Origin: Escherichia phage naam
Sequence record: MN850630.1
Reading direction: 5' to 3' (one strand)
Length of the DNA stretch: 64,000 nt
Within the stretch, counting starts at the first letter, position 1. Each line of letters opens with the position of its first letter. A program made the translations under genes and the position numbers. This document shows positions 27,455 to 39,250 of this stretch, piece by piece. The notes under the pieces are model-generated. The model saw only the letters and a program-made list of their open reading frames with translations. It did no database searches and was not told where the DNA came from.

Positions 27455-28936
27455 TCACTTGGCGTACTCGATTAATTCTACAGTTTTCCCAAAGCTCGGG
27501 ATATAATTTTTATTATACCCCTCGGTGAGAACCCATAAAGTATCGTACTTTTTCCACTTGTTGTCAACAGCCTTTTGTTCAAAGTTATGCTCAAAGTATA
27601 GGTCGGTCAGGACGATGACATCTTTTGCATTCGGTATGTTGGCATCCAGATACTCAAACACACAAGCAGCTGTTGTGCCCCATGTTGAGTGGACCTCATA
27701 GTTGATCATCTCGTCTATGTTGCCGCGAGTGTATACTTTAACCTCTCCAACCTCAGTTGACCAACAGAACATTGTAACCTTAAACTCTTTATACAGATTG
27801 CACAATCCGGTGATTTCATTGAACATTTTCTTTAAAGTTCTTTGAGAGATCGAGCCAGAAACGTCTAAAGCCACCACAATATCTATGGTGTTTTCCGGAT
27901 TACGACCAGGAACAATAACGTGCTGGTTCTTGTTTATAGCCCCAACTTTTCGCATTGTGCTGGTCAAAGAACCAGATCGGCGACCAGGTTTTCTGTAGGT
28001 CAGTTCAGCCTTTCGTTTAGACAACATGCGTTGCTTAATAATGTCTATATAGTTGATTACAGGCTTGCCTCTGTTCTTGACGAACTCACGCACCGCCTCA
28101 GGGCAACGACCTCCGGAAGCTTGCATTGCTGCCTCCAGCATGTCACCAGAGTCCTGCATGGCCTGATCTTTATCAGATTGGCTGATTACAGGTTGTGGCT
28201 GATCATACCCCATAGCCTTTCCAAGATCATCACTGGTGCCACCGTTCCCACTCATGTGATCATCGGTTTGTCGCTTATCCCCTTGAGAGTTCTCACCTTT
28301 ACCGCTCTTACTTTTACCGTTATTCTGATCTCTTTGCTTATCAAGAACTGCATAGACGTTCTCAGCAATCCATCCATGAAACTTCATGTCGCAGTAGCAG
28401 CTGGCTAAGAAGCCAAAAGGCTTACCTTTTACGAACGTAGTGCTTTTCCCCTTCGGGAAGAAAACACAAGGGGGCTTACTAAAGTCAACCACAAGACCTG
28501 TGTTGATAACGTGATCACAAGCAATATTGAACAGTTCTGGCTCAAAACTTTTACCACGGACCAGGTGATCACAGATAATATGCCCCACCTCATGTGACAG
28601 AAGAAAGGCCACCTCCTTCACAGATTTGGGGGAATAGAAAACCTCAGCCATCCCAAACTGTTCGTCAGTTAGAGAAGCCTTAAGAATAGCCCTGCGTTCA
28701 TCAGCCAATCCCATAATGAACTCAGGACTGTAATAGATGCGTTTATGGTCGGTTGCCATGGTAGAGCACCATGTGTGGTTTTCTACGAACTGCAACCCTG
28801 ACAGTAGCGTGCCATAAAACGGCAGCTTTTCAAGGAGATACATACGTGCAGCCTGCAACATTCTCAGGGCATCATCTTTCTGTGAGGCAATGATTTCTGA
28901 ACTTCTGCTATCCATTAAAACTCCAGAAGGGGCCAT
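27455..28936 (-). CDS. vWA-domain protein with N-terminal HExxH metallopeptidase-like domain (partner type of MoxR-class AAA+ ATPases)
   Basis: HEVGHIICDH zinc-peptidase-like motif in the N-terminal third; MIDAS-like VVALDVSGSIS in the C-terminal third. Confidence 0.7.
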   Translation of the reverse strand: MAPSGVLMDSRSSEIIASQKDDALRMLQAARMYLLEKLPFYGTLLSGLQFVENHTWCSTMATDHKRIYYSPEFIMGLADERRAILKASLTDEQFGMAEVFYSPKSVKEVAFLLSHEVGHIICDHLVRGKSFEPELFNIACDHVINTGLVVDFSKPPCVFFPKGKSTTFVKGKPFGFLASCYCDMKFHGWIAENVYAVLDKQRDQNNGKSKSGKGENSQGDKRQTDDHMSGNGGTSDDLGKAMGYDQPQPVISQSDKDQAMQDSGDMLEAAMQASGGRCPEAVREFVKNRGKPVINYIDIIKQRMLSKRKAELTYRKPGRRSGSLTSTMRKVGAINKNQHVIVPGRNPENTIDIVVALDVSGSISQRTLKKMFNEITGLCNLYKEFKVTMFCWSTEVGEVKVYTRGNIDEMINYEVHSTWGTTAACVFEYLDANIPNAKDVIVLTDLYFEHNFEQKAVDNKWKKYDTLWVLTEGYNKNYIPSFGKTVELIEYAK

Positions 28937-28948
28937 TGGCCCCTGTCA

Positions 28949-29992
28949 TTATTTAACGTGTTTGAAAATACCTGCCAACTCGGTCATTGTCATGCGGGTG
29001 GTCTTCATAAGATCTGTCATAGCTTTCTCCATAATTGGAGATACTACCATAAAATTTCCTTTAGTGAAACCTTTATTCCAGTCGGTCACCAACAGTGGTT
29101 TAAGTCCAGCCCCGAGACGTTCACCTGTTAAAGCACAGCATTTGCGAATATACGAACTCTTAAATTGGCTGAACGACAGATCAACTTTCATACCTGCATC
29201 GTAGAACGTTTGACAATAGAAAGTATAAGCCTTAGCAATCTCAACATCATCAGGCAGTGCAGGAACCTCTTCTGCAATCTCCTCTTCGACCTTCTGAGGC
29301 TCTTTTTCCTCTTCAGGAGTCTGTTCTTCAATTTCTTCTGTCACAGTCTCGTTCACGATGTCTGAAATATGTTTGTTGGCTGCACGATCAGCCATGAAAT
29401 TTTTAAAATCCTGCATTGGTGACATATCTTCTTCCTCTTCGTCAAATAGTGCTAGTTTATCTTCTTCTGTCCCGTATTGCAAGATGAAATCTTCAAAAGT
29501 ATAATCACCTTTCAATTTCTCCATACGCTCTTCGCTCAGGTGGAGCATCATCTGCTGGACAATTTTTCGATCGGTTTTGTCTTTAATCAGGATTGCAGTC
29601 TTTTTATCTACCAGACAGTCTTTCAGAGCGTTGCACCTCAACCCTACCACACAACAATTGTCAATTGCGTAAGGACCTTCATCATCTATACGCTCTAAAG
29701 ATGGGTAGAAAGGATTTCCCAGTCCGTTTTCATCTGTGTGCATGTCGAAAGGTATAAGAGTGTAGTCGCATACCCCTTCTCCTAAAAGTTTTTTACCAAA
29801 TAGGAGGTATTCTTCCCACGACAGGTCGAACTCTATATCTCGTTTCCGTGCATTATTCTGTTTGCGTCTATATTTTTTGAGCAGGCGCTCTAACTCTTCT
29901 GGTGTATAATATTTTTCAAGATTCATGAGTTGTCTCTCGTGCTCTGTAAGTGAAGAAATCGTATCAATTGTCTCAACAGATGTCAACATCAA
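28949..29992 (-). CDS. Hypothetical protein with very acidic central linker and possible degenerate HNH-like motif
   Basis: 347 aa; TTG/ATG start at the divergent promoter hub; LERIDDEGPYAIDNCCVVGLRCN; long D/E-rich stretch. Confidence 0.55.
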   Translation of the reverse strand: MMLTSVETIDTISSLTEHERQLMNLEKYYTPEELERLLKKYRRKQNNARKRDIEFDLSWEEYLLFGKKLLGEGVCDYTLIPFDMHTDENGLGNPFYPSLERIDDEGPYAIDNCCVVGLRCNALKDCLVDKKTAILIKDKTDRKIVQQMMLHLSEERMEKLKGDYTFEDFILQYGTEEDKLALFDEEEEDMSPMQDFKNFMADRAANKHISDIVNETVTEEIEEQTPEEEKEPQKVEEEIAEEVPALPDDVEIAKAYTFYCQTFYDAGMKVDLSFSQFKSSYIRKCCALTGERLGAGLKPLLVTDWNKGFTKGNFMVVSPIMEKAMTDLMKTTRMTMTELAGIFKHVK

Positions 29993-32255: not shown

Positions 32256-32561
32256 GTGGGGGCAGGGATGCCGCTTAGAAGAGTAATAAACATGTTATAC
32301 CAGAAACACGAACTTTGTGCAGAAAAAGAGTTAAATTTTGACAAAGTTATCCACAAATATTGTTACGGGAAAACCGGAAGATACCTAAAAAGGTGCACTC
32401 CAGCATTCTTTCACCCCAGCAGGCGACTAAGCCCTGAAGAAGCAACAGCAGAAAGGGTTGCATACAACTGGGAAGTTGTGTACGATATTGACAGATCCGA
32501 TGTGACATCTGTTTTGGAAAACTTTGAAAACACTTACACACAAGTAGAGGACTTTTACTAA
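32256..32561 (+). CDS. Hypothetical protein
   Basis: 101 aa ORF. Confidence 0.5.
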   Translation: MGAGMPLRRVINMLYQKHELCAEKELNFDKVIHKYCYGKTGRYLKRCTPAFFHPSRRLSPEEATAERVAYNWEVVYDIDRSDVTSVLENFENTYTQVEDFY

Positions 32562-33745
32562 TGTCAAGAAACGTATTTGAAAGTGGTCAAATCACTGTCC
32601 GTGAGTTGCCAGCCATCATTCAGTTTGCCCAGCGTCATAACCGATCTGTCCTGATTTTAGGACCAATGGGCGTGGGGAAGAGCCAGGTGATGAAGCAGAT
32701 CGCTAATAATATGTTCGGTGAGCGAGATGACAACCTGGTTGACGTGCGGCTGTCAGATAAAGATCCTGCCGACTTATCTGGGCTACCTATCCCTGTAGAA
32801 GCGGATGGAACTACACGTACAGTGTTTGCAATTCCAGAATTTTGGCCTGCAGATCCGGACTGGAGCGGAATTATCTTTCTGGATGAGCTCACTCATGCAG
32901 ATAATTACCTGCAAAAGGTTGCAATGCAAATTATGCTCGACCACAAGTGCGGCACCTATGCATTCCCCAAGGGCTCTGTTTTTGTAGCTGCAGGTAACCG
33001 TTCTACAGATGGTGCGGTTCTCTCGGCGCTCGAAGCTCCTCTGGCTAACCGCTTTATCATTGTAGAGGTTACAAGCAATGCAGAGGTGTTTATTGAGGAC
33101 TACGCATTCCTCAACGGGGTGCACTCATCTGTAATTGGGTATCTGAAAAGAGTTCCATCAGCTATCGATAATTATGAGGCTATGGCTGAGATTAATTGTC
33201 CATCTTTTGCCACACCGCGATCTTGGGTTGCTGCATCTGACATCTTGCACGATTTTGACAGCGGTATTATTTCTGACGCTATGGCCCGTGTTCTTCTGCA
33301 AGGTGCTATTGGTCACACTGCAGCGGTAGAGATCTGGACTTACCACACTAAGAAACGCAACTTACCGGAAATCGGTCGGATTATGGCAGGGGGTTGCAAA
33401 GAATACGTAGGTCCTAAACAGCCAGACATCTTGTGGATTCTTGGGTCTGAAGGTTGTATCGCTATTCGTAATATGATGGAAAATGCAAGTATCTCTGACG
33501 AAGATCTTGTTAGCTGTGTGGCAAACTTCCTCGATTTCCTTTGGGAAAATTTCAAGGACGAGAACCGAGATTTTGTATTCTCAGTCTTTATGGCAATGAT
33601 GAAGCCTAATGCCTTAGGAAATGCCTTACTTATCGGTAAAGGGCGTGACAAGATTGTTGCTCAGCTGATCAAAGCATACCCAAACCTGATGAAGATTGTA
33701 AAAGAGTTTGGTGAAGAGTTTAGCGCCATTTTAGCTAAAGCTTGA
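32561..33745 (+). CDS. AAA+ ATPase, MoxR/CobS-like (AAA_5 type)
   Basis: Walker A GPMGVGKS, Walker B IIFLDEL, sensor-1-like AAGNR. Confidence 0.7.
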   Translation: MSRNVFESGQITVRELPAIIQFAQRHNRSVLILGPMGVGKSQVMKQIANNMFGERDDNLVDVRLSDKDPADLSGLPIPVEADGTTRTVFAIPEFWPADPDWSGIIFLDELTHADNYLQKVAMQIMLDHKCGTYAFPKGSVFVAAGNRSTDGAVLSALEAPLANRFIIVEVTSNAEVFIEDYAFLNGVHSSVIGYLKRVPSAIDNYEAMAEINCPSFATPRSWVAASDILHDFDSGIISDAMARVLLQGAIGHTAAVEIWTYHTKKRNLPEIGRIMAGGCKEYVGPKQPDILWILGSEGCIAIRNMMENASISDEDLVSCVANFLDFLWENFKDENRDFVFSVFMAMMKPNALGNALLIGKGRDKIVAQLIKAYPNLMKIVKEFGEEFSAILAKA

Positions 33746-34147: not shown

Positions 34148-34175
34148 CCCCCGCTTCGGCGGGGATTTTCTATTT
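34148..34175 (+). terminator. Rho-independent terminator, UUCG-tetraloop family
   Basis: cccccgc-ttcg-gcgggg followed by attttctattt. Confidence 0.75.
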
Positions 34176-34184
34176 GGAGTCATT

Positions 34185-34685
34185 GTGAAAATTAAGATCT
34201 TTGCTATTATTTTGAGCGCACTTTTATCGCTGCCTGTTGTTGCAGCACCAAAACAAAAAGTATATCATACTTGCAAGCCATCAGATACTAAGGAAAACAT
34301 TCTGGCATGCAATATCTACAGGGAAGCTAGAGGAGATGGCACGATGGGTATGCTGGCATCTGGGTTTGCCACACTAAACAGGAAATCCCACCCTAAATAC
34401 CCAGACACTATAAGAAAGATTGTCTACCAACCTAACCAGTTTTCGTGGACAAACCACGGCAAAACTTTTAAGGTGACAGAAAAAGATTCATGGGATCACG
34501 CTAAAAGTCTTGCAAAGATGCTTCTAAAGGTCTATAATAACAACCATGTTGCATACATGGCTATGGACATAACAGGTGGAGCAACACACTACCATACAAC
34601 CAAAGTACGACCGAAATGGGCAAAAAAGATGCAGAGGACAGCTCAATTCGGGAGCCATATCTACTACAAGGAGCGCAATAAATGA
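34185..34685 (+). CDS. Secreted cell-wall hydrolase, SleB/CwlJ-like (candidate endolysin)
   Basis: GTG start; N-terminal signal-peptide-like segment KIKIFAIILSALLSLPVVAAP; motifs NIYREARGDG, LNRKSHPKYPDTI and QPNQFSW typical of the SleB family. Confidence 0.65.
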   Translation: MKIKIFAIILSALLSLPVVAAPKQKVYHTCKPSDTKENILACNIYREARGDGTMGMLASGFATLNRKSHPKYPDTIRKIVYQPNQFSWTNHGKTFKVTEKDSWDHAKSLAKMLLKVYNNNHVAYMAMDITGGATHYHTTKVRPKWAKKMQRTAQFGSHIYYKERNK

Positions 34686-36664
34686 TCGTAAACAGTAATG
34701 AAACTAAAGCGGTACTAACCGGTAATATGGAGGTCACCAGGGGCTCAATTTCTCTGAACAAAGAGACTTTTGGGCTAATCATTAAAGGGATTTACGAAGA
34801 TAAGGTGCTGGCAAGCTGCCGTGAACCAATCTTCAATGCCGTGGACTCCCATGTTGAGTCTGGACGGGGTGATGTACCGATCATTATTCACTCTCCTACA
34901 GACCTTGAACCATACTTCTTTGTGCAGGACGTCGGATTGGGCATGTCAGAAGAGATGGTCCGCAACACTTTCATGAACCTCGGGGAGTCAACCAAGCGCA
35001 ACAGCAACGCTCTGGTAGGTAATAAAGGTGTTGGTTCAAAGGCTCCGTTCAGCATGGTGGACACTTTCGATGTTATCAGTGTGCACAATGGTGTTGAAAG
35101 CACATATCTATTGTTCTTGGATCAGGGTATCCCAAACGTTACCAAGATCCGTGAGCGGAAGACTGAAGAGCACAACGGGGTAAAAGTTCAGTTCCATGTT
35201 AAGAAAGAGCATGTCCTGAAATATCGCACTGCTATTGCATCGTGCTTACGCTATGCGAAGTTTCCGTTCATCGTCACCGATCCTATGACCAGTAAGATGT
35301 TAGAAGGTGACAAGGTTGAGGCACAGTATCATTACGAGAAGGATGGCTGGAAAATGACCATCCTGAAAGGTTATACCAGTTCTGATGAGAGCCGTGTTGT
35401 GATGGGTCACCAACCTTACCGCTCTAAGTTTCTGGAAACATTGACAGACTACCCTGCAATCTGCGTGGAAATTCCTATTGGGGATTGCAATATTAACCCT
35501 GGGCGTGAATGGACCATAGAGGGCCATGACGACGGTGGATTCCAGGATCGCCTGGAGGCATTTGTTAAAGAAGGTATACGTCTTCGCGGGGCAGAAGTTG
35601 TTGCAGAACTGGAGACGGCAAAAACCTCCGCAGAAGCACGTGAAATGATGAAGAATAGTGGAGTGTTCGGACACATCTTCGGCAAGAACTTTATGTGGAA
35701 CCGTTGGGAAGAAACAGGGCTTGGCGACTTAGGCGATTGTGAAATTTTCGCTGGCGGCTTAAATAAAGGCCGCATAGGCTATGCTCGTTACGGAAAGTCG
35801 GAGTTCTTACGAGGTGTATACCTTGTATTTAACGACGGAGACGGCAAATATAACCGGAATAAGTGTAACTACTTAAGCGAGATCACCGGACGCAACGTTT
35901 TCTATTGCCGGAACACGGATCTGGTGAAAGAGTTTAAAGAGGCGGCACACCATCCGTTCTTTGCAGATACGGTCAAATTGTTATCGGAGCTTCCACGCCG
36001 ACCTGCGAAGAAAGGTGAAACCAAAACTCGTTACGAGCCAGGCTACTGGGTTAAGAAGCTTAGAGAGGATGGCTACTTCCATCGTGAGCGCCTCACGAAG
36101 GCAGAGTTCAAGAAGATTAAGCATTGCATCCCTTATGAGGGGGATATCCAACGGGGAAGCTGCTGGCTGGGCCAGATGAGTAACATCTACCAGCAAAATT
36201 ATGACCGTGTGCGTGCTGCACTCCAGATTCCTGAAGGTGAAGATCTGTACCTGGTATCAGAATCTCGTCTGCTTTGGACTGATCCTGATTGCCAGTATGT
36301 TACAGAGAAGAATGTGGAACATTTGTTGAAAGAGGATGCTTGGAAATTCTTACTGACTCGCGCAGCAAATGAAACTTCATATGACAGCCTATATAGACAA
36401 TTAGGGAAAATTATCCCCATGCAGGATTTTGGAAATTATCGGCCACATTTCCACAAGTGGGAAGGTAACACCGCGTGGAAGCACAGTGAGCTAAATCATC
36501 GTGCCAAAATCTTAATCGCCAACCGGGTTAAGTGCGGGAAGGCCTATATTGCAAGATTGGAAAAGAAATATCCACTTTTGAAGCATGTGGGCTTGAAATA
36601 TTGGGACACTCCTGCTATGATTGAATACCGTGAACTGATCGATACAAAGAATAACATCAAATAA
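34682..36664 (+). CDS. GHKL/HATPase_c-type ATPase domain protein (rIIA-like, tentative)
   Basis: Bergerat-fold-like motifs VQDVGLGM and GNKGVGSKAPF in the N-terminal region; 660 aa. Confidence 0.45.
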   Translation: MIVNSNETKAVLTGNMEVTRGSISLNKETFGLIIKGIYEDKVLASCREPIFNAVDSHVESGRGDVPIIIHSPTDLEPYFFVQDVGLGMSEEMVRNTFMNLGESTKRNSNALVGNKGVGSKAPFSMVDTFDVISVHNGVESTYLLFLDQGIPNVTKIRERKTEEHNGVKVQFHVKKEHVLKYRTAIASCLRYAKFPFIVTDPMTSKMLEGDKVEAQYHYEKDGWKMTILKGYTSSDESRVVMGHQPYRSKFLETLTDYPAICVEIPIGDCNINPGREWTIEGHDDGGFQDRLEAFVKEGIRLRGAEVVAELETAKTSAEAREMMKNSGVFGHIFGKNFMWNRWEETGLGDLGDCEIFAGGLNKGRIGYARYGKSEFLRGVYLVFNDGDGKYNRNKCNYLSEITGRNVFYCRNTDLVKEFKEAAHHPFFADTVKLLSELPRRPAKKGETKTRYEPGYWVKKLREDGYFHRERLTKAEFKKIKHCIPYEGDIQRGSCWLGQMSNIYQQNYDRVRAALQIPEGEDLYLVSESRLLWTDPDCQYVTEKNVEHLLKEDAWKFLLTRAANETSYDSLYRQLGKIIPMQDFGNYRPHFHKWEGNTAWKHSELNHRAKILIANRVKCGKAYIARLEKKYPLLKHVGLKYWDTPAMIEYRELIDTKNNIK

Positions 36665-36674
36665 GGAGACCAAG

Positions 36675-37880
36675 ATGATTTTCATCTACGAACATTTCAA
36701 AACCCGTAAAGAAGCACGAGACCGCCGTGCAGAACTTGAGAAGAAGGGTTTCACATGTGCCATTGAGAAAGGCGACACAACCTGGACACTGGCAGTTGGT
36801 GCCCCAGAGTTGTTCGATCCTGACCGTGACAGCGTCTGCTACACCCGTGAGGATTTTGAAACCCGCGAAGAGGCCCGTTTATTTCGATACGGTCTGGAAG
36901 ATAACGGTAAGTACGCTATGATCTTAGATTTAGGCGAAGGTTCCGTTAAACGTTGGGGCGTGGTATACCCACTGTGTGTTGTTCACGGTGTGGGGTTCAC
37001 TGGGGTAGCAATCAAGTCAGAAGAACCTTTAGTAGAAGTCAAAGATCCGGTGCTGGAGGTGGTGAGCAGTGTGTCTCAGCAACAGACTCGAAGCATCGAG
37101 CCTTTGGTAGTTATTTGTGGGGAACTCCTCCAGATCACCTGCAACGAAGGCATTTTTGAAATTCGCCGCAGCGAAAGTGAGGAAGTTTACCAGAAAGTCT
37201 TCGACCATATCTCTGTTCAGGAATATGATGAGGCAATTGGTGAAATCCTTGTCTGGCTGGAACGCAAGAATGAGTTCACCACACTTGCAGACAACCTGAT
37301 CATGAAAGATGGTAAGCTCTACTACTACGGTGTAGAGATGCGATCCACCATTGCAAAGAAAATTGAGAAAGATTATGCAGACGGAACGCTGGATGACCGC
37401 TATGTGAAATTCCTCGTTCGCCTGCTACGCAATCCTTCTGCAAAATCTGTAAACATGCTCTACGATTTTATGCAGGCCAACGATATCCAGATTGCCGAAG
37501 ATGGTCGAATCATTTGCTACAAAGGGGTTCAGTTTAACGGCAGCAAGTGGGTGGATTGGCACAGTGGTAAAGTTCCACAATACCAGGGTGCTTTTGTATC
37601 CATGCCTCGTAACTTTGTAGAGGATGATCCGGAAGCTGCGTGCTCCTATGGCTTACACTGCGCCAGCAAAGAGTATGCAAAGAGCTACGGCACTGTAATG
37701 ACTGTTATGGTTGATCCTGCAGATGTGGTTAGTGTGCCATACCAACACAATAGCGCTAAGTGCCGTGCATGCCGCTATGAGATTGTGGTAGCTCCGGAAG
37801 CACGCAAAGATGGAGACCCTATTGAATATGTAGTTGATCGTGACGGTAACACTATCGACATTCTTTACGAGGAGGCGTAA
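36675..37880 (+). CDS. Hypothetical protein with tandem N-terminal repeat (possible rIIB-like partner)
   Basis: 401 aa; segments HFKTRKEARDRRAELEKKGFTCAI and DFETREEARLFRYGLEDNGKYAMI form an internal duplication. Confidence 0.45.
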   Translation: MIFIYEHFKTRKEARDRRAELEKKGFTCAIEKGDTTWTLAVGAPELFDPDRDSVCYTREDFETREEARLFRYGLEDNGKYAMILDLGEGSVKRWGVVYPLCVVHGVGFTGVAIKSEEPLVEVKDPVLEVVSSVSQQQTRSIEPLVVICGELLQITCNEGIFEIRRSESEEVYQKVFDHISVQEYDEAIGEILVWLERKNEFTTLADNLIMKDGKLYYYGVEMRSTIAKKIEKDYADGTLDDRYVKFLVRLLRNPSAKSVNMLYDFMQANDIQIAEDGRIICYKGVQFNGSKWVDWHSGKVPQYQGAFVSMPRNFVEDDPEAACSYGLHCASKEYAKSYGTVMTVMVDPADVVSVPYQHNSAKCRACRYEIVVAPEARKDGDPIEYVVDRDGNTIDILYEEA

Positions 37881-39250
37881 TGGAAAAAGGGCAGTATGAT
37901 GTAGGCACAGATGCTGCCCTCGTTGCAATCATGAGCGGTGAGAATGTCTTCGTTTCAGGACCCGCAGGTTGTGGGAAGACGTACCTCATCAACATGATCC
38001 AGTCAATGTATGGAGACTCTTGCATAACGGTTGCCCCGACAGGGGTAGCCGCTTTAAACGTTAATGGAGCAACAGCACACCGAACCTTCGATCTTGCAGC
38101 AGGTGTGAGCATGGAGTCGGACTGGACCGCAATAAGGGCAAAAACAGCAAAGCCTTTGAAAAGCAAGGCATTTACCATCCTAATTATCGATGAAATCTCT
38201 ATGATCCGTGCTGATAAGTTTATAGAGATGGATAGGAAACTCCGCTTCCTTCGAAAAAATGACAAACCTTTCGGGGGCATACAGGTCATATTGTTTGGCG
38301 ATTTTTACCAGGCACCTCCTGTTGTCTCTTCTATGGAGAAGGAAGCCTACTTCAACTTCTACCATACGGACCTGTGTTGCTATACCGAATCTTGGAAAGA
38401 GCTTGACCTCCACAACATAGCCCTAATAGATCAGTTCCGACAGGAGTCTATTCGATTTGCTACAATGCTCAACTGTGTTCGTGAGGGTCGTCGCATAAAA
38501 GAGGTTGTAGCAGAACTTAATGCTCGCTGTTACAAAGGAGGTGTACCAACAGACGCTCTCACAATTTGCGCCACCAACAAACAAGCAGAGGAAGTGAACA
38601 GAAGGTTCTATGATGCCATCAACGCCCCAGAGAAGGTATACACTGGTGAAATGAAGGGTAAGTTTCCCTCCACCCTGCCAGTTGAGCAGGAGATGAAGTT
38701 GAAAATTGGCATGAAAGTTATGATAACCGCCAACGATGTTGACCCGACGCACAAAGTACCTTATTATGTTAACGGAACACGTGCCACAATTGTTAAATTT
38801 AAGAACAAGGCGGTGGTGGTAGAGCTTGAAGATGGAACACAGGTTGACATAGAGCAGAGGTTGTGGGAGAATAACGAGTATAAGCCATCTCAGAGATACA
38901 ACATTGCAGAAAGGAAGATGGAGAAGTTTATAGAGAGGGTAGTGATTGGGTCATACAAGCAACTTCCTCTGAAATCTGGGTACGCCGTAACATCTCATAA
39001 AAGTCAAGGACTTACACTAGATTGTTACAACCTAGACCTTGGAAAGAACGGAGCTTTCTCTCCTGGGATGACGTATGTCGCTTTGAGTAGAGTTAAGACA
39101 ATACAAGGGATAAACTTGTTGCGTCCACTAAGAGAAGTTGACATTATTGTTGACCCGCGAGTCGTAGAGTTTTACAATACAACATTCCCTGACTTAGACA
39201 AAATTGTCAGGAAAGATTTTGAAACCAGAGCCGAAGAGGGGGACGTATGA
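37880..39250 (+). CDS. SF1 DNA helicase (Pif1/RecD/Dda-like)
   Basis: Walker A GPAGCGKT followed by VAPTGVAALNVNGATAH; Walker B-like ILIIDEISM; start overlaps the upstream stop. Confidence 0.8.
   Translation: MEKGQYDVGTDAALVAIMSGENVFVSGPAGCGKTYLINMIQSMYGDSCITVAPTGVAALNVNGATAHRTFDLAAGVSMESDWTAIRAKTAKPLKSKAFTILIIDEISMIRADKFIEMDRKLRFLRKNDKPFGGIQVILFGDFYQAPPVVSSMEKEAYFNFYHTDLCCYTESWKELDLHNIALIDQFRQESIRFATMLNCVREGRRIKEVVAELNARCYKGGVPTDALTICATNKQAEEVNRRFYDAINAPEKVYTGEMKGKFPSTLPVEQEMKLKIGMKVMITANDVDPTHKVPYYVNGTRATIVKFKNKAVVVELEDGTQVDIEQRLWENNEYKPSQRYNIAERKMEKFIERVVIGSYKQLPLKSGYAVTSHKSQGLTLDCYNLDLGKNGAFSPGMTYVALSRVKTIQGINLLRPLREVDIIVDPRVVEFYNTTFPDLDKIVRKDFETRAEEGDV

Follow-up and report, generated by a model that had tools for sequence, protein, structure and literature searches.

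The analysed window comprises 64,000 nucleotides (nt) of Escherichia phage naam (sequence record MN850630.1) and carries, on the + strand, two adjacent open reading frames of 660 and 401 amino acids (aa), which a preliminary description made from the DNA alone had regarded as a possible rIIA/rIIB-like pair. The coordinates given there proved to be exact, and our analyses indicated that the genome is that of an rV5-like phage of E. coli and that the two genes are very probably its counter-defence genes rIIA and rIIB. Profile searches, which had been proposed as a check of the assignment, matched the first protein over its full length with PHROG 612 (‘RIIA lysis inhibitor’; E 3e-124, residues 1-658 against profile positions 1-724 of 725) and residues 132-375 of the second with PHROG 609 (‘RIIB lysis inhibitor’; E 1.3e-61). 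BLASTP aligned both with the corresponding proteins of phage T4, namely residues 1-198 with rIIA (28% identity, E 3e-21) and residues 172-371 with rIIB (37% identity, E 4e-39), and the family PF26926 (Phage_T4_rIIB) is recorded for a database protein, P0001, which is identical to the rIIB of the window. As a control, T4 rIIA was found to match PHROG 612 too (E 9e-250), and T4 rIIB falls in PHROG 609. The adjacency on which the preliminary description had relied was also borne out: the two genes are separated by a gap of 10 nt that holds the AAGGAG ribosome-binding site of rIIB, and their order is kept in relatives. The coordinates of these and of the neighbouring features are collected in Table 1.

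In the predicted rIIA protein, a GHKL ATPase domain whose nucleotide-binding motifs are intact occupies the N-terminus and is followed by a long C-terminal region; in the literature, rIIA is described as combining a GHKL ATPase with a variable C-terminal domain (PMC7824862). The Bergerat-fold motifs VQDVGLGM and GNKGVGSKAPF, pointed out in the preliminary description, were located at residues 81-88 and 113-123, respectively, and belong to a complete GHKL set, made up of motif I (E48-x3-N52-x2-D55), motif II (D83-x-G-x-G87) and motif III (G113-x-x-G-x-G118), all three of which are aligned in the BLASTP comparison with T4 rIIA. The Pfam model HATPase_c_3 matched residues 50-147 with a score of 34.9 bits (gathering cutoff 25; E 1.8e-8), and a scan against NCBIfam returned, for rIIA, only GHKL matches below threshold and, for rIIB, nothing. 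The GHKL part at the N-terminus of rIIA is, in addition, hit by the PHROG 609 profile, which has 1055 positions, in the window (E 1e-23) as well as in T4 (E 2e-58). Fused RIIA-RIIB proteins, such as that of Escherichia phage RB43 (Q56C47), probably entered the construction of this profile and would explain the cross-match, which is a trap for automatic annotation.

The rIIB protein is composed of an N-terminal tandem repeat, a linker predicted to be disordered and flexible and, in its C-terminal two-thirds, a conserved core that is common to T4 rIIB. The AF2 model of the full-length protein had a pLDDT of 73, which fell to 22-27 over residues 101-141, where the alignment of homologs also shows indels. 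When this model was compared with BFVD using Foldseek, 29 significant matches were obtained, from diverse phages and nearly all annotated as rIIB; against the PDB, the same model gave no match at E <= 0.001 for the core, and PDB sequence searches with rIIA and rIIB returned nothing significant. Within the core, between residues 312 and 366 (37608-37775), the residues R312, D317, C323, G326-L327-H328, K362, R364 and C366 are invariant in 17 sequences, including that of T4, and the Cys...His...Cys pattern, as read from this alignment, could be a metal-binding or catalytic site. One database protein of 498 aa (P0005) combines TPR repeats with the C-terminal 55% of rIIB at 99% identity; it comes from a 3.3-kb ENA contig and most probably arose as a chimera during assembly or gene calling.

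Tandem copies of a short F-x-TR-x-EAR domain had been noticed at the N-terminus of the 401-aa protein, and this repeat was recovered here as F-K-T-R-K-E-A-R at residues 8-15 and F-E-T-R-E-E-A-R at residues 61-68. Three tests placed the likeness of the two copies beyond chance. BLASTP of the two halves against each other gave 11 identities in 20 positions (E 1e-4), the Smith-Waterman score had z = 5.7 and was attained in only two of 5000 shuffles, and hhalign of the repeat-1 and repeat-2 family profiles, built from eight homologs, returned a probability of 93.5% over 36 columns (E 2.3e-7). The isolated N-terminal module was modelled by AF2 with a pLDDT of 79, both units being predicted as beta-alpha-beta-beta. 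A recent duplication of DNA was considered as the source of the repeat and rejected, since there is no DNA-level repeat between the copies and even homologs with no more than 35% identity retain both of them, so that the duplication must be an old one. Echoes at the DNA and peptide level between rIIA (AELETAKTSAEAREMM, residues 308-323, 35602-35643) and the first rIIB repeat (KTRKEARDRRAELEKK, 36699-36741) were also rejected, as they are probably due to chance. Several phage mini-proteins of 38-45 aa (BFVD A0A5B7LKJ6, A0A2I7RAJ6 and A0A142IEA5) superpose on one repeat at about 1 Å.

Table 1. Features of the rIIA/rIIB locus of phage naam, with positions numbered from the first nucleotide of the window.
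Feature	Position	Strand	Description and evidence
Terminator-like GC-rich hairpin, then T-run	34149..34164	+	CCCCGCTTCGGCGGGG; consensus scan, pattern match only
SleB/CwlJ-type cell-wall hydrolase	34185..34685	+	166 aa, predicted secreted, signal peptide; Pfam Hydrolase_2 E 2e-19; PHROG 938 endolysin
rIIA	34682..36664	+	660 aa, ATG start; PHROG 612
rIIA GHKL (Bergerat-fold) ATPase domain, residues 50-147	34829..35122	+	HATPase_c_3; motif I starts upstream at 34823
rIIB	36675..37880	+	401 aa, ATG start; PHROG 609, PF26926
rIIB repeat 1, residues 3-42	36681..36800	+	beta-alpha-beta-beta (AF2); F-K-T-R-K-E-A-R ... W-T-L; Pfam SPOR match
rIIB repeat 2, residues 53-103	36831..36983	+	beta-alpha-beta-beta (AF2); F-E-T-R-E-E-A-R ... 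R-W-G-V; repeat-to-repeat similarity
rIIB linker, about residues 104-141	36984..37097	+	low confidence, indel-rich
Conserved rIIB core, about residues 142-401	37098..37877	+	common to T4 rIIB; BLASTP, Foldseek, alignment
Pif1/Dda-like superfamily 1 (SF1) helicase	37880..39250	+	Pfam PIF1 E 1e-32; PHROG 325 Dda-like helicase

The window belongs to a Vequintavirus (rV5-like phage), and nucleotide comparisons revealed that the region is 97-99% identical to about 120 records of this genus; the rIIA/rIIB pair of such phages is already known and annotated. The rV5 record DQ832317 names rIIB ‘rIIB protector’ at 99.8% nt identity, by a convention that goes back to rV5, the genomes of rV5-like phages start at rIIA (PMC4591320), the phages nomine, APECc02 and PMBT16 annotate both rIIA and rIIB, and the BASEL phages call both proteins ‘membrane integrity protector’. 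The label ‘hypothetical protein’ persists in several close relatives, e.g., O157 typing phage 5 and phiWec191, which could be re-annotated as rIIA/rIIB. The region is also 97-99% nt identical to 16 unannotated ‘Campylobacter phage’ records (within MG065644-MG065690), 15 of which list C. jejuni as host; these host labels look doubtful, or the stocks may have become contaminated.

The rII locus is historically famous. Its prototype is that of T4, whose genes rIIA (NP_049616) and rIIB (NP_049889) belong to the same PHROGs as the genes of the window, with rIIA immediately preceding rIIB on one strand; they serve in counter-defence against RexAB, as those of naam very likely do. The likeness to T4 extends to the N-terminal GHKL motifs of rIIA and to the C-terminal core of rIIB, whereas the proteins differ in length (rIIA, 660 aa in naam and 725 aa in T4; rIIB, 401 and 312 aa, respectively), the N-terminus of rIIB is a tandem beta-alpha-beta-beta repeat with a linker in naam and an HTH-like (helix-turn-helix-like) segment in T4, and the pair is flanked by a hydrolase and a Pif1-like helicase in naam and by rIIA.1/gene 60 and denB in T4. 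In phage RB43, the fused RIIA-RIIB protein of 1049 aa shares the rIIB core fold (Foldseek E 2e-16) and the GHKL part of rIIA, but it is one polypeptide, whereas naam has two open reading frames with a short gap and a separate ribosome-binding site for rIIB.

The function of the pair can be approached through the closely related phage EdH4 (Vequintavirus murica), whose genes were located in MK327930. The rIIA and rIIB of EdH4 and rV5 are orthologs with the same gene order and neighbours, and they differ from the proteins of the window by a handful of aa substitutions only, with nothing suggesting a functional difference; in EdH4, 653 of the 660 residues of rIIA and 391 of the 401 residues of rIIB are identical. 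In the study of Adler et al. (2025; PMC11879866), CRISPRi-ART was used for the knock-down of either RIIA or RIIB in T4, MM02, EdH4, SUSP1 and N4; according to the main text, this was without effect on E. coli free of Rex and lowered the plating efficiency on E. coli expressing lambda RexAB. The preliminary description had linked rIIA and rIIB homologs to resistance against prophage-encoded exclusion and predicted a plating defect of deletion mutants on excluding hosts; as the EdH4 pair is near-identical to that of naam, this experiment has in effect already been done, by knock-down and not by deletion, and the same main text reports the predicted, Rex-dependent outcome for a set of phages that includes EdH4. 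By analogy with these reported results, rIIA and rIIB of naam would be dispensable on ordinary hosts and required for efficient plating on RexAB cells. Given the annotation since the rV5 record and the Rex phenotype for a 98-99% identical pair, no new biology therefore arises from the pair as such. A PADLOC search with rIIA and rIIB returned no meaningful match to a defence system. From the side of the host, RIIB of phage T6 is reported to trigger, by itself, CARD/gasdermin defence systems and to be toxic when expressed (PMC10312443); such triggering is on record for the T6 protein only.

With regard to mechanism, rIIA and rIIB would work as one complex, a proposal with which the natural RIIA-RIIB fusions, such as the RB43 protein, are consistent. 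The GHKL domain of rIIA may confer ATP-driven dimerisation or clamping, and the complex would then mask or remodel what RexA senses, or would stabilise the membrane ahead of the opening of the RexB channel, and depolarisation and abortive infection would thereby fail to set in. Several points weigh against the counter-defence explanation as a whole. The BLASTP likeness of rIIA to T4 stops at residue 198, and the C-terminal part of the protein is linked to the family at the profile level only. The Rex phenotype is taken by analogy from the EdH4 orthologs and not from phage naam itself, and in the main text of PMC11879866 that phenotype is described for the set of five phages as a whole and not for EdH4 singly. 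Complex formation, ATP-driven clamping and an action upstream of RexB are steps that we infer. Finally, neither rIIA nor rIIB has a predicted transmembrane segment or a signal peptide, and the membrane association assumed for T4 is therefore not evident from the sequence.

The first alternative to be weighed concerns the breadth of the function. The pair might be a general membrane-integrity or lysis-timing module, in which protection against RexAB is one consequence, or it might be directed at other prophage or chromosomal exclusion systems. The T4 RefSeq entry carries the note ‘membrane integrity protector; mutants give rapid lysis on various lysogenic strains’, a name that is also found in the BASEL records; the orthologs RIIA and RIIB of phage Bas37 matter in some clinical isolates of E. 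coli according to a HIDEN-SEQ study (bioRxiv 10.1101/2025.11.20.689424); and rIIA appears to be coupled to the adjoining upstream gene for a secreted cell-wall hydrolase, in an order that is kept in relatives. Such a broader role is not really exclusive of a function in counter-defence against RexAB, and Rex-dependence is the only phenotype reported for Vequintavirus orthologs, so that we regard it as possible but rather unlikely. That the pair should instead be another GHKL-ATPase system (MORC-like, Hsp90-like or topoisomerase-like) with an unrelated partner is hardly conceivable. The 660-aa protein does show sub-threshold matches to the GHKL models of sacsin, HSP90 and restriction enzymes, as well as to TRAP1 in the PDB (E 0.1), but these lie far below the family cutoffs, and this reading is refuted by the full-length PHROG match of rIIA, by the BLASTP matches of both proteins to T4 and by the presence of T4 rIIA and rIIB in the same PHROGs.

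A further alternative concerns the N-terminal repeat of rIIB, which might be a genuine peptidoglycan-binding SPOR domain that tethers the rII complex at the cell wall or septum, possibly together with the upstream hydrolase. The Pfam SPOR model (PF05036) does match residues 8-42 of rIIB; in five of the eight homologs a SPOR match was also obtained, and Foldseek superposed one repeat on the SPOR domain of B. subtilis CwlC (1x60) over 42 columns at 1.6 Å. The match covers profile positions 12-49 of 76, however, i.e., half of the profile, and the full-length protein scored 19.3 bits, below the gathering cutoff of 21, which was exceeded (23.4 bits) when residues 1-105 were searched in isolation; within this isolated module, residues 8-42 alone match SPOR. 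A complete SPOR domain, of about 70 aa and with the order beta-alpha-beta-beta-alpha-beta, was not found in the N-terminal module, in which each unit is beta-alpha-beta-beta. Compared with known SPOR domains (CwlC 1x60 and P. aeruginosa RlpA 6i0n), each repeat is weakly similar in sequence to the first half, but the unit is half as long, it has no export signal and its fold is generic. Homologs do not conserve the only weakly hydrophobic stretch of rIIB (residues 95-113, Kyte-Doolittle 1.69), and since rIIB has neither a signal peptide nor a conserved transmembrane segment, the module would be expected in the cytoplasm and hence apart from peptidoglycan. An anchoring role of this kind is therefore very improbable, and because of the half-profile match and the missing export signal the unit is called half-SPOR-like here and is not filed as SPOR. 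In one GenBank record, the protein carries the automatic name ‘SPOR domain-containing protein’.

Rather than being a general feature of rIIB, the repeat is a module confined to rV5-like phages and their relatives. An exhaustive HMMER search with the module profile among 1.84 billion cluster representatives gave eight matches only, which comprise rIIB-like proteins of about 400 aa, some fragments, a stand-alone protein of 150 aa with two copies (P0126) and a stand-alone protein of 42 aa with a single copy (P0125), and tblastn with the single sequence of the module returned Vequintavirus records only, with at least 95% aa identity. In T4 rIIB, residues 7-50 give matches to HTH_7 and HTH_28, and an HTH-like N-terminus of the T4 type was not found in the rIIB of the window. 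Proteins annotated as rIIB vary in length between 147 and 1049 aa; the N-terminus of rIIB is therefore variable, and the HTH-like segment of T4 is probably no defining feature of the family. The N-terminal repeat would most likely serve as an exchangeable accessory or adaptor module and would not form the functional core. A more specific role, in which the module would be a swappable specificity or adaptor domain that retargets the rII complex to another exclusion system or envelope component of the host, or would shield the core from host sensors such as the CARD/gasdermin systems responding to T6 RIIB, is unlikely; if it were true, the variable N-termini of rIIB, HTH-like in T4 and tandem mini-domains in naam, would be the record of an arms race. 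No paper discussing the variability of the N-terminal module of rIIB was found in a literature search, and the lineage-restricted tandem mini-domain is the sole mildly new detail of the locus. It also offers a small, well-defined handle for domain swaps directed at the specificity determinants of rII.

Regarding the genomic context, rIIA and rIIB lie within a tightly packed unit of the order hydrolase, rIIA, rIIB, Pif1/Dda-like helicase and a 113-aa open reading frame. The upstream edge of this transcription unit would be formed by the terminator-like hairpin listed in Table 1, and a terminator is annotated at the equivalent position of EdH4. The first gene encodes the cell-wall hydrolase, with a hydrophobic N-terminus that constitutes its signal peptide (MKIKIFAIILSALLSLPVVAA), and an ATGA overlap joins its stop codon to the start codon of rIIA, a junction from which translational coupling of the two genes is predicted. 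The hydrolase is labelled endolysin in some records, and it is curious that the gene of a lytic enzyme lies immediately 5' of genes named ‘lysis inhibitor’. At the other end, the start of the helicase gene overlaps the stop of rIIB (TAATG), which places it in the same unit; the helicase is a neighbour, outside the rII pair. Relatives at 35-49% identity share the order rIIA, rIIB and Pif1-like helicase, usually preceded by the hydrolase, and the Klebsiella-phage relatives L007 and L008 (35% identity) keep all four genes in this order.

Further upstream, a MoxR-like AAA ATPase (PHROG 1297, E 1e-110) is encoded on the + strand at 32561-33745, two genes 5' of the hydrolase gene, and beyond it divergent genes are found on the - strand (27455-29926), which relatives annotate as a DUF2201-type metallopeptidase and an ‘anti-sigma factor’; the MoxR-like ATPase and these genes may represent a MoxR partner pair. 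The promoter scan remained at background level (18 found and 16.5 expected), and no promoter was assigned. In the whole window, the tRNA scan detected none and the Rfam scan returned no family at the gathering threshold. The GC skew across the window shows a strand switch at about 23.4-30 kb.

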